A DNA stretch of 64,000 nucleotides from Promethearchaeota archaeon Loki_b31 (GTDB taxonomy: Archaea > Asgardarchaeota > Lokiarchaeia > Sigyniarchaeales > SOKP01). This document shows, piece after piece, positions 56,958 through 59,951 of this stretch. The stretch is from the NCBI GenBank assembly GCA_005222975.1, contig NJBI01000003.1, positions 70,962 through 134,961 on the forward strand, given 5' to 3'. The position numbers were made by a program, and so were the translations under genes. Position 1 is the stretch's first letter. The number at the start of each line of letters is the position of its first letter. The notes under the pieces are model-generated. The model had not been told where the DNA came from. It did no database searches and worked only from the letters and a program-made list of their open reading frames with translations.

Positions 56958-57179
56958 CTACTTTTTTCTATAATAATTATCTCGGAAAATTCTTGACTTT
57001 TCTTCATCTCGTTCCTCTTTGCAGTTAGGACAAATCCATGTGGTATCGTTCTTTTTTACAGAATTTAAGCAAACATCGCAAACAGTGATATCGCATATGC
57101 AATAATGGCATTTATCTAACATATCTTTACAATTCTTCCCGCATATGTAACAATTAGGAGGGCTTTTGGTTTTGGACAT
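56958..57179 (-). CDS. Stand-alone C4C4 RING-finger protein
   Basis: C-x2-C-x13-C-x-C-x4-C-x2-C-x12-C-x2-C. Confidence 0.75.
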   Translation of the reverse strand: MSKTKSPPNCYICGKNCKDMLDKCHYCICDITVCDVCLNSVKKNDTTWICPNCKEERDEEKSRIFRDNYYRKK

Positions 57180-57279
57180 TTCTAGTTTATATTTTAAATT
57201 CTTTTAATTATTATAATATTCATTATTATGATTAGTAGTAATTAAATTTAACAAAATTATTTTTAGCAAAATTAACAAA

Positions 57280-57462
57280 ATGGATAAACTAAAATCGCGA
57301 GTTCAATTGCTTTCGCTTTTTATAATTTTTTTTATATATAAGGTTATAGCGGCTATTGTTGATAACAATTACTCTGAATTCGTTTTATGGTTTATGTTTT
57401 CTATTGTTTATGCTATATCTCTTACGATCTTATATTTTGCTTTTAAAAAAAGGAAATTATAA
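57280..57462 (+). CDS. Small 2-TM membrane protein
   Basis: Two hydrophobic helices and a basic C-terminus. Confidence 0.55.
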   Translation: MDKLKSRVQLLSLFIIFFIYKVIAAIVDNNYSEFVLWFMFSIVYAISLTILYFAFKKRKL

Positions 57463-57524
57463 TAGTTTAATTAGTATTGACTTTGAAAATAAATAAATTG
57501 TTAAACTTCTTTGAAATGTTTCGT

Positions 57525-57803
57525 TTATTTCTTTGTCTTTTTTTTAAAAATGTCCGGAATTAAACCCTCAATCCCAAGACGGTTCAAAACAATATCACTA
57601 ATATCGACTTTAACTTTCATATCTTGCATAGCTTTTAACGTTTCTCCTAACATTTTGGTAAAACTTTCGTTCATTTCTTTAATAGTATCGGAAGTTAATT
57701 GAAGGGATTCCCGAATAGCAAGATTTGTCTCGTGTAACTCTGAAGTCATTTTTTCCATGCTTTTCCTCATTTCAGAGATCTCATCTTTTAATCCCATTAT
57801 CAA
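57525..57803 (-). CDS. Small coiled-coil protein
   Basis: Heptad-rich Met/Leu helix; basic tail. Confidence 0.65.
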   Translation of the reverse strand: MIMGLKDEISEMRKSMEKMTSELHETNLAIRESLQLTSDTIKEMNESFTKMLGETLKAMQDMKVKVDISDIVLNRLGIEGLIPDIFKKKTKK

Positions 57804-57973
57804 TCCAAATGTTAACTTATTTATTTTTTTTAATAGTTTTGTAAATGAATGAAGTACTTAAAGTTTTTATTTAAATGGAAAATAAATCTCGTATAATTAT
57901 TAAATATAACAAATACTCTTTTAAGATTGCTTAATTATATTCAAAATAACTAATAAAATAAAAATTAATCAAA

Positions 57974-58117
57974 ATGTCTGAATGGAAATACAAAGTTAAA
58001 AAACCTGTAGCCGAAGCAGATTTTTGTACAACCTCTGGTTGAGGAATCGTTGACGGAATAATTTCGTGTATTAGAAATCTAAAAAAAAAACGCAAAGAAA
58101 AAAAAAGCCAAAAATAA
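57974..58117 (+). CDS. Candidate seleno-microprotein 1 (Cys-x4-UGA; TGA at 58040-42)
   Basis: MSEWKYKVKKPVAEADFCTTSG(*)GIVDGIISCIRNLKKKRKEKKSQK*. Followed by the conserved RNA fold. Confidence 0.55.
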
Positions 58118-58121
58118 ACTA

Positions 58122-58184
58122 AATCTCGAGGAGTAAAGCAAAAATGTTAGGTTTTATTCCTTAGTTCCGCAAGAACTTGAGATT
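58122..58184 (+). promoter_or_regulatory. Conserved three-stem RNA element, copy 1 (candidate 3' recoding element)
   Basis: P1 AATCTC/GAGATT; P2 GGAGTAAAGC/GTTTTATTCC with loop AAAAATGTTAG; P3 AGTTC/GAACT. Confidence 0.65.
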
Positions 58185-58330
58185 AACTCTTACATTTTTA
58201 CTAAACATCGATCTTTTTATTATTATAAAAAATTACATAATTGCGCAGTAACTTTATTTTTTATAAACCTCATCCTTAATACCCCTGATTTTTATAATCT
58301 TAACAATAAATTTAATAGTGAGAAAAACAC

Positions 58331-58510
58331 ATGTCGGAAGAAGACGAATTTGATTTTGGATTTGATGACAATTGCTACGAAACTAGTTGATCGTTACTAA
58401 CTATGTGGTACTTAAGAGCTTTAAAAACGCAGAAAACTAAAGAAAAACCGGAAAAAAAAACAAATATAATAAAAATCTCTATGATTAAGTCGTTAAATGA
58501 TAGGATTTAA
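58331..58510 (+). CDS. Candidate seleno-microprotein 2 (Cys-x4-UGA; TGA at 58388-90)
   Basis: MSEEDEFDFGFDDNCYETS(*)SLLTMWYLRALKTQKTKEKPEKK... GTGAG upstream. Would end at TAA 58467-69 if the A9 run is 1 nt too long. Confidence 0.55.
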
Positions 58511-58539
58511 TCAATAAGTTCTATGCCAGAATTTGAGAT
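58475..58539 (+). promoter_or_regulatory. Conserved three-stem RNA element, copy 2
   Basis: P1 ATCTC/GAGAT; P2 TGATTAAGTC/GATTTAATCA with loop GTTAAATGATAG; P3 AAGTTCT/AGAATTT. Confidence 0.65.
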
Positions 58540-58586
58540 AGAATTTCTTATTACTTTTTTATTTGAAAAACAAACAGAGAAAAACA

Positions 58587-59951
58587 TTAATAGGGTTTTT
58601 TTGACCCTTCTCCAACCTTTCTGTAAATAAAACCTTTTTCTTCAACCAATTTCTTGTCAAATATGTTCCTTCCATCTATAATAATCGGCGTTCTTACTTT
58701 CTTCTTTAAATCATCAAGATCGATATTGTAATATTCCTTATGGTTTGTTGCAAAGATTAATACATCAGCTCCTTTCACTGCTTCATTAAAATCACTTGTT
58801 AACTCAGTAAGTCTATAATCCCTTTCGTTGACATAAGGATCATGGGAGACATATATAATGTTATGAGAATGATATCGATTTTGTAATACCTTAACAATAT
58901 TTTCAGTTGGTGTATTTCTCACATCATCTGTATTAGCTTTATATGATACTCCTAAAAGTACAATCTTTATATTATCTACTAGTTTATGTGATTCTCTAAA
59001 TACATCCTCCATTAATTCTACCATATGATATGGCATATAATCGTTTAAATTCCGTGAATTGGGAATTATCTTGATCTTAGACTCATTTTTTTTTTCGGTA
59101 TATTTATTAAACCCGTGTAGAAGTAACCACGGATCCTTTGTTAAACAATGCCCTCCAACGCCAGATCCGGGATAATGCATCATCCTATCATGCCGTTGAT
59201 TTATTAACTCGATAATTTCATAAATATTACGATCAAAATCTTCGCAAAGCAATGCCATTTCATTTGCAAATGCGATATTAACATCCCTATACGCATTTTC
59301 AATACATTTAGTTAATTCTGAAGTAAGTGTGTCAGTTATTTGAAGTTCTTTTTTGACCACTTTTCCATATAGAAAACTTGCATTTTCATTAGCTTTTTTA
59401 CAGCCTCCTCCAATAACACGGGGAAAATCAGTAATGTATTCTATTAACTTTCCCGGCATGACTCGTTCAAACGAAAAAACAAGATAAAAATCGTGACATC
59501 TTTTTAGTCCGCTTCCTTCTTCCAAGATTAACTGTACGGTATTATCTGTTGTTCCAGGAGCTACAGTAGACTCTATAATTATCGTTGTTCCCTTTTTTAA
59601 ATGTTTTGATATTCTCTGAGAAACCTCTATTAAGGATTCATATCTAGGTAATCTATTTTCATCGACGGGAGTCTGAACATCAATTAAAATATAATCTGCA
59701 TCCTCAACATTATCATAATTATCAGTAACCTTAAACTTTCCATTCTTTACTACCCTTTCAATTAACTCATCTAATCCAGGCTCATCCCCTTCAAAAGGAT
59801 TTTTACCCTTATTAAGCCAATCAATTTTCCAACTTGATCTTTGAGACCTTCGTTGAATACCCGTAACATAGAAATCGTCTACATCAGCTAACAGAACAGC
59901 CATGGGAATACCAACGTATCCCATACCAATAACAACGATATTAGTAGGCAT
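58587..59951 (-). CDS. UDP-sugar (UDP-ManNAc/GlcNAc-type) dehydrogenase
   Basis: GMGYVG, ESTVAPGTT, KCIENAYRDVNIAFANE, GVGGHCLTKDP, YKANTDDVRNTP. Confidence 0.93.
   Translation of the reverse strand: MPTNIVVIGMGYVGIPMAVLLADVDDFYVTGIQRRSQRSSWKIDWLNKGKNPFEGDEPGLDELIERVVKNGKFKVTDNYDNVEDADYILIDVQTPVDENRLPRYESLIEVSQRISKHLKKGTTIIIESTVAPGTTDNTVQLILEEGSGLKRCHDFYLVFSFERVMPGKLIEYITDFPRVIGGGCKKANENASFLYGKVVKKELQITDTLTSELTKCIENAYRDVNIAFANEMALLCEDFDRNIYEIIELINQRHDRMMHYPGSGVGGHCLTKDPWLLLHGFNKYTEKKNESKIKIIPNSRNLNDYMPYHMVELMEDVFRESHKLVDNIKIVLLGVSYKANTDDVRNTPTENIVKVLQNRYHSHNIIYVSHDPYVNERDYRLTELTSDFNEAVKGADVLIFATNHKEYYNIDLDDLKKKVRTPIIIDGRNIFDKKLVEEKGFIYRKVGEGSKKPY

Follow-up and report, generated by a model that had tools for sequence, protein, structure and literature searches.

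The window analysed here is a 64,000-nucleotide stretch (contig C78, positions 70962-134961) of a 3.5-Mb MAG with 31.5% G+C and 92% completeness. In it, a gap between two minus-strand genes, encoding a 92-aa coiled-coil protein (57525-57803) and a UDP-glucose/GDP-mannose dehydrogenase (58587-59951), holds two small ATG-led frames on the plus strand, each interrupted by an in-frame TGA and each followed by a structured RNA. The first unit, u1 (57974-58117), has its Cys codon at 58025-27, the TGA at 58040-42 and a read-through stop TAA at 58115-17, giving 47 aa that start MSEWK and contain the motif FCTTSG-U-GIVDG and a Lys-rich tail. The second, u2 (58331-58510), has its Cys codon at 58373-75, the TGA at 58388-90 and a TAA stop at 58508-10, giving 59 aa that start MSEEDE and contain NCYETS-U-SLLTMWYLRALK.

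An earlier note, made from the sequence alone, had pointed to two such units with a Cys exactly five codons before the TGA and a homologous three-stem element behind each, and these observations are confirmed. Some details differ. The ATG of u2 is at 58331, one base before the implied 58332, and its read-through product is 59 aa rather than about 46, because this copy has lost the usual stop and runs 35 nt into its own element, whereas relatives have 44-49 aa. The note also took the shared Cys-x4-UGA spacing to be selected, but this spacing is local to the window: of 49 distinct u1 sequences, 44 are CxxU and only 5 are Cx4U, the window copy carrying a two-codon insertion.

The u1 element (58121-58184, plus strand) is a three-way junction in which P1 pairs 58123-27 with 58179-83, P2 pairs 58130-39 with 58151-60 around the apical loop AAAAAUGUUAG at 58140-50, and P3 pairs 58163-67 with 58173-77 around the loop CGCAA. 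In the u2 element (58473-58540, plus strand), P1 pairs 58475-79 with 58535-39, P2 pairs 58482-91 with 58504-13 around the loop GUUAAAUGAUAG at 58492-503, and P3 pairs 58516-22 with 58528-34. The two elements align to each other and fold with z about -3 against shuffles (-3.1 for u1). They start 81 nt and 85 nt after the UGA of u1 and u2 respectively, the family median being 85 nt. Oligo-T tracts follow the u1 element (58195-58222) and a T6 tract follows the u2 element (58553-58558), all on the plus strand and likely to be archaeal termination signals, although this is an inference.

To ask whether the units are genes, we first searched the DNA of 40 relatives, which showed the locus in many genomes of the same genus; every copy keeps MSE, a Cys, an in-frame TGA and a conserved peptide after it. 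A profile of u1 finds it in 105 of 134 genomes of the same family of Promethearchaeia, across 11 genera, and every full-length match holds exactly one TGA, while only one weak hit appears in 19 genomes of the other families of the order. A profile of u2 finds it in 63 of 134 genomes of the family, with the TGA in 59 of these 63, and in 0 of 266 genomes elsewhere in the phylum. The pattern, which recurs in more than 100 species-level genomes, is far beyond chance, and no homologue has TAA or TAG, or a frameshift, at or right after the TGA codon.

Coding-type conservation continues beyond the TGA, with substitutions such as GGA/GGC/GGT/GGG, GAC/GAT, TCG/TCT/TCA, TTA/CTA and GCT/GCA/GCC. In frame, pN/pS after the TGA is 0.51 for u1 (49 distinct sequences) and 0.285 for u2 (19 distinct sequences), the latter equal to the 0.274 found before the TGA of u2. 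The other two frames give 0.88 and 1.43 for u1 and 0.88 and 1.08 for u2, and mostly contain stops, whereas the reading frame is open in 49 of 49 and 19 of 19 sequences. TGA is otherwise an ordinary stop in this genome, ending 154 of 1434 open frames of 300 codons or more.

The decisive result concerns four u2 homologues that carry TGT (Cys) exactly at the TGA position, within one uninterrupted ORF. Three of these genomes (G108, G103 and G082 in our numbering) are near-identical and count as one event, while the fourth (G129) is clearly different and counts as a second. In the clade of three the element behind u2 is gone: a covariance model of the micro-gene elements (R1), run with filters off, finds only the element behind the neighbouring u1, which keeps its TGA, and the spacer to the dehydrogenase gene is short and unrelated. 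In G129 an element remains but is weakened, scoring 41.5 bits against 51-80 for all others, with a mismatch in P1 and a bulge in P2. By contrast, all 19 distinct Sec-form u2 sequences have the element 83-91 nt after the UGA, and 47 u1 sequences have it at 68-97 nt; one further u1 element (locus L091) was seen only by the covariance model. Three u1 sequences, from genera g21 and g13, sit about 20 nt in front of u2 and share the single element behind it, 251-258 nt from their own UGA. This is the classical signature of a selenoprotein gene and its SECIS, although u1 itself has no Cys form in 154 genomes, in 5.8 billion clustered proteins or in 1.84 billion representatives.

The genome also has the machinery expected for selenocysteine. 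SepSecS is at C59:32358-33515 (383 bits), and two tandem SelD genes on contig C34 each have one in-frame TGA. A tRNA with a UCA anticodon, in a CUUCAAA anticodon loop, and a 31-nt insertion in the T loop lies just upstream of SepSecS, the intron being exactly as published for the Lokiarchaeota tRNA-Sec (PMC4989117); this Rfam candidate is better than the one that ARAGORN gave in intron mode at C59 c34501-34681. An EFSec-like GTPase on the same contig scores 227 bits, below the cut-off of the bacterial model but above the next-best GTPase at 89, and a PSTK-like gene scores 140 bits, also below its cut-off. A test by presence and absence of SepSecS was uninformative, since 146 of 154 genomes of the order have it: all carriers of u1 and u2 belong to a Sec-using lineage, but no Sec-less control group exists.

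The structure of the element is well supported. On a MAFFT alignment of 26 elements the three helices are 93% paired and 12 of 20 pairs show compensatory changes, which no shuffle reaches, and RNAalifold finds P2 on its own. On 50 distinct elements from 11 genera, 96.4% of cells are paired and 17 of 20 pairs show compensatory changes, including all 10 pairs of P2 and all 5 of P3, and 0 of 500 shuffles reach this; note that the second alignment was fitted to the model, which favours the structure. The three central pairs of P1 (U-A, C-G, U-A) never vary. In the own genome only the two units match model R1, at 80.1 bits for u1 and 75.9 bits for u2, and two hits of about 20 bits (C59:24328-24386 and C14:45631-45694) have no UGA micro-ORF upstream and are noise. 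Pairing of the P1 5' strand with the UGAGG of u1 does not hold for u2. There is no conserved structure in the 60 nt after the UGA, and hence no internal SECIS of the bacterial type. Rfam at a permissive threshold gave only weak snoRNA-like noise in 57000-59500, but as it also missed the genuine SelD SECIS this is uninformative.

To compare the element with known SECIS we searched this genome by pattern and found four canonical lokiSECIS, also called the Asgard eukaryote-like SECIS type I (Mariotti et al., 2016, PMC4989117; Huang, Xiao & Zhang, 2024, PMC11227280), with AUGA, a 9-bp stem, an 11-nt loop AAAAA..AG and then GA or AA. Three of them lie directly behind multi-UGA HdrA-VhuD pairs, while the SelD genes have the type II form. 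All of these also have a lower stem and a side hairpin between the core and the lower stem, and are therefore three-way junctions with the topology of the micro-gene elements; this third arm is not mentioned in the passages of the two papers that we consulted. The micro-gene elements share the lower stem P1, a P2 of 9-10 conserved pairs (up to 12 in the window's u1), an A-rich apical loop of 11 nt in u1 and 12 nt in u2, and the side hairpin P3 with a CGYAA-type loop. The loop is AAAAAUNUUAG in u1 and GUUAAAUGRUAG in u2, the latter A-rich but without the leading five adenines, and the terminal AG is nearly invariant. The single element shared by u1 and u2 in genera g21 and g13 matches the HdrA-VhuD pairs of Lokiarchaeota, which share one lokiSECIS (PMC4989117), whereas in this window and in most genomes each micro-gene has its own copy.

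What the element lacks is the AUGA/GA kink-turn core. AUGA occurs only by chance in the window's u2 copy, relatives having UAAGA, GAAGG, AUAGA or AAAAA, and the 3' side reads UC, UU or CU and continues the helix. The two bases at the foot of P2 pair with the opposite strand and covary (G-C 26, A-U 17), and in other genera they are simply AA. A three-way kink-turn (k-junction) using the GA of P1 and the GA at the base of P2 fails for the same reason, and the 5' GA is not conserved in other genera. Quantitatively the likeness to lokiSECIS is weak: R1 hits one canonical SECIS at 18.8 bits and one SelD SECIS at 12.3 bits, but a model built from four canonical cores of this genome (R2) does not find the micro-gene elements above noise in the window, scoring the u1 element at 10 bits (E about 10) and not listing the u2 element, and the apical module alone is as frequent in the reversed genome as in the real one (41 against 44). 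Nor does the element have the asymmetric GAA/A bulge of the euryarchaeal SECIS, P2 being a continuous AU-rich helix. The SECIS assignment therefore rests mainly on the linkage to the UGA, the fixed distance, the shared-element arrangement and the loss after Sec-to-Cys replacement.

The proteins have no Pfam or NCBIfam match at E up to 10. u1 reads MSEWK..., then F/Y-C-T-G-U-G-I-x-D-G in most species, and u2 has an acidic N-terminus followed by D-x-C-Y-x-T-S-U-S-L-I-x-M-W-Y-x-R-A-x-K, with C-Y-x-T-S-U in all sequences. AlphaFold with the family alignments predicts, at modest confidence (pLDDT 69 for u1 and 63 for u2), a disordered N-terminus and one long helix that starts at the Sec, from residue 22 to 46 in u1 and from residue 21 onward in u2; the first three turns are amphipathic and the rest is polybasic. 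The large protein collections hold only members of the same family, 45-66 residues long and printed with W at the Sec position. One of these, P0003, equals the u1 of locus L013 letter for letter except for W in place of TGA, so that these are calls made with a TGA=Trp code on short contigs. One database protein, P0033, shows Leu at the site. An hhalign comparison of u1 with u2 gave E 0.025 and a probability of 2%, so protein paralogy cannot be demonstrated, and their kinship is inferred from the shared 3' element, adjacency and common layout.

u1 shares with the Rdx-type selenoproteins (SelW, SelT, SelH, SelV) and other thioredoxin-fold CxxU/UxxC proteins a CxxU motif at the start of a helix, CTGU in 44 of 49 sequences, but those proteins typically have 85 residues or more and a thioredoxin-like beta-alpha-beta fold, which is not predicted for u1 or u2. 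VhuU, the 25-50 residue selenopeptide subunit of archaeal [NiFeSe] hydrogenase, is likewise a very small archaeal selenoprotein that gene callers overlook, and Asgard archaea have it (PMC11291895). However, VhuU appears to be the split-off C-terminus of the hydrogenase large subunit, with Sec before Cys in a DPUxxC...H motif, whereas here Cys precedes Sec and there is no hydrogenase context. A Cys/Sec couple at a helix N-cap would correspond to the arrangement of thiol-disulfide oxidoreductase motifs, and we therefore infer a minimal redox-active Cys/Sec (selenenylsulfide) couple, possibly working as a u1/u2 pair.

The explanation we consider most likely, and hold with fair confidence, is that the gap contains two separately transcribed micro-genes in which, as the earlier note had proposed, the UGA is decoded as selenocysteine, and that the element behind each probably acts as its SECIS, without a kink-turn. 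There is no direct evidence of selenium in the peptides, and that the RNA itself directs Sec insertion remains an inference. It is somewhat more likely than not that Promethearchaeia insert selenocysteine with a SECIS that has no kink-turn at all, the decoding factor reading the apical A-rich loop, the three-way junction and the invariant lower stem, so that the eukaryote-like AUGA/GA core would be dispensable in this lineage and the two micro-selenoproteins would be a dedicated Cys/Sec redox pair found only in one uncultured family.

Alternatively, the genes could be real selenoprotein genes while the three-way junction is a terminator, stability or localisation element of the 3' UTR, with Sec insertion directed by something else. 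The missing core, the failure of the canonical-core model, the undistinctive apical module, the oligo-T tracts and the element retained by the Cys-form u2 of G129 would all fit this explanation. We nevertheless consider it unlikely, because no other conserved structure follows the UGA, the element is lost in the Cys-form clade while the neighbouring u1 keeps both its TGA and its element, the distance is tightly held at 68-97 nt, the shared element mirrors HdrA-VhuD, and the three-arm architecture and loop signature are those of the proven-type SECIS of the genome. It is still less likely that the UGA is read with a standard amino acid (Trp, Cys or Arg by near-cognate decoding) stimulated by the 3' structure. 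Translation past the UGA is shown only by its evolutionary signature, which does not name the residue, and the SECIS core is missing, but the only sense codon found at the site in genomes is Cys TGT, the classic Sec/Cys exchange, a partner Cys sits 3 or 5 residues upstream in all copies, the Sec machinery is present, and more than 100 species keep TGA although one mutation would give a sense codon. A true stop yielding 22- and 19-residue Cys peptides, the alternative raised in the earlier note, would fit the ordinary use of TGA as a stop in this genome but is strongly disfavoured by the frame-specific pN/pS after the TGA, the open frames, the uninterrupted Cys-form ORFs and the absence of RNA structure in that stretch.

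The published Asgard selenoproteome lists seven families, all found by homology (PMC11227280), and a 2026 review counts eleven archaeal families (PMC13188914). The surveys we could read list HdrA, VhuD/FrhD, VhuU/FrhA, SelD, Prx-like, AhpF-N-like and DsbA-like for Asgard archaea, none of them a 45-60 residue CxxU/Cx4U peptide, and two further families, present in about 100 and 60 species-level genomes, would show that such lists miss micro-genes. The Loki SECIS was presented as the bridge to the eukaryotic SECIS because of its kink-turn core; a natural, conserved element that keeps the rest of the architecture but not the core shows which parts may matter for recognition in archaea, where no SECIS-binding protein is known, and explains why SECIS-first pipelines would not find these genes.

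The neighbouring genes, which encode UDP-glucose dehydrogenase, the 92-aa coiled-coil protein, a Zn-ribbon protein and a rhomboid, are syntenic across genera but on the other strand, and give no functional hint. Of three RNA-labelled runs compared with the locus, one covered only a poly-A-like 38 nt and one is probably DNA, so that neither is evidence. The third, a metatranscriptome that may itself hold DNA, contains a single 227-nt contig of a relative (the CTGU form) covering 57980-58210, i.e., the u1 ORF plus its element and nothing else, whereas DNA contigs run on beyond that. This is a weak hint of a short discrete transcript ending at the oligo-T tracts. Records of relatives carrying u2 are titled Promethearchaeia or Promethearchaeota MAGs, which fits the attribution to Lokiarchaeia in the earlier note, and include isolate bin41, named in the 2026 review as the largest known archaeal selenoproteome; one contig is labelled Nanopelagicaceae and is probably mis-binned.

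All canonical lokiSECIS of this genome (G000), on contigs C17, C61, C87 and C90 (loci L042:275-352:-, L043:275-352:-, L044:1485-1562:+ and L045:1485-1562:+) and in the SelD 3' UTRs (locus L005, minus strand, about 2880-2800 and 1356-1283), carry a lower stem plus a side hairpin 3' of the GA, with the loops CGUAA, GCAA, GCGA and CAGCA. They are therefore three-way junctions, although no such arm is described in the passages we consulted of the two SECIS papers (PMC4989117; PMC11227280). For one of these, the canonical AUGA...AAAAAUAUUAG...GA lokiSECIS on contig C87 around 31031 (L044:1501-1535:+), a crude scan of the 3 kb upstream revealed no recognisable known selenoprotein gene, and the element may serve another hidden small selenoprotein. 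The two SelD genes themselves lie in tandem at C34:55676-58070 (loci L005 and L006), each with one in-frame TGA and its own type II SECIS.

We also note that the Sec machinery is clustered: an EFSec-like gene (minus strand), tRNA-Sec with a 31-nt T-loop intron (C59:32015-32131, plus strand) and SepSecS lie within 6 kb at C59:27894-33515 (loci L004 and L100), which echoes the EFSec/tRNA-Sec linkage reported for Lokiarchaeota.

In the elements that follow the micro-genes u1 and u2, the central U-A, C-G and U-A pairs of P1 are invariant in 50 of 50 elements (alignment A7, columns 4-6 with 75-77), while all pairs of P2 and P3 covary. This hints at sequence-specific reading of the lower stem. The u2 copy of this window has lost the stop used by its closest relatives and runs 35 nt into its own element, through P1 and most of P2 (58473-58510), and in several relatives the stop of u1 or u2 also lies inside the 5' part of the element.

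Public protein collections hold this family (proteins P0001-P0034) only as calls with Trp at the UGA, made on short contigs; automatic use of a TGA=Trp code hides the Sec codon. A contig filed under 'Candidatus Nanopelagicaceae bacterium' (locus L113, DATKTW010000010.1) encodes u2, but is probably a mis-binned Promethearchaeia contig. Finally, a 60-aa hydrophobic ORF at 57280-57462 (+) of the window, for which there is no Pfam match, is conserved by tblastn in 41 of 65 related loci next to the micro-genes, and is probably a real small membrane protein gene.
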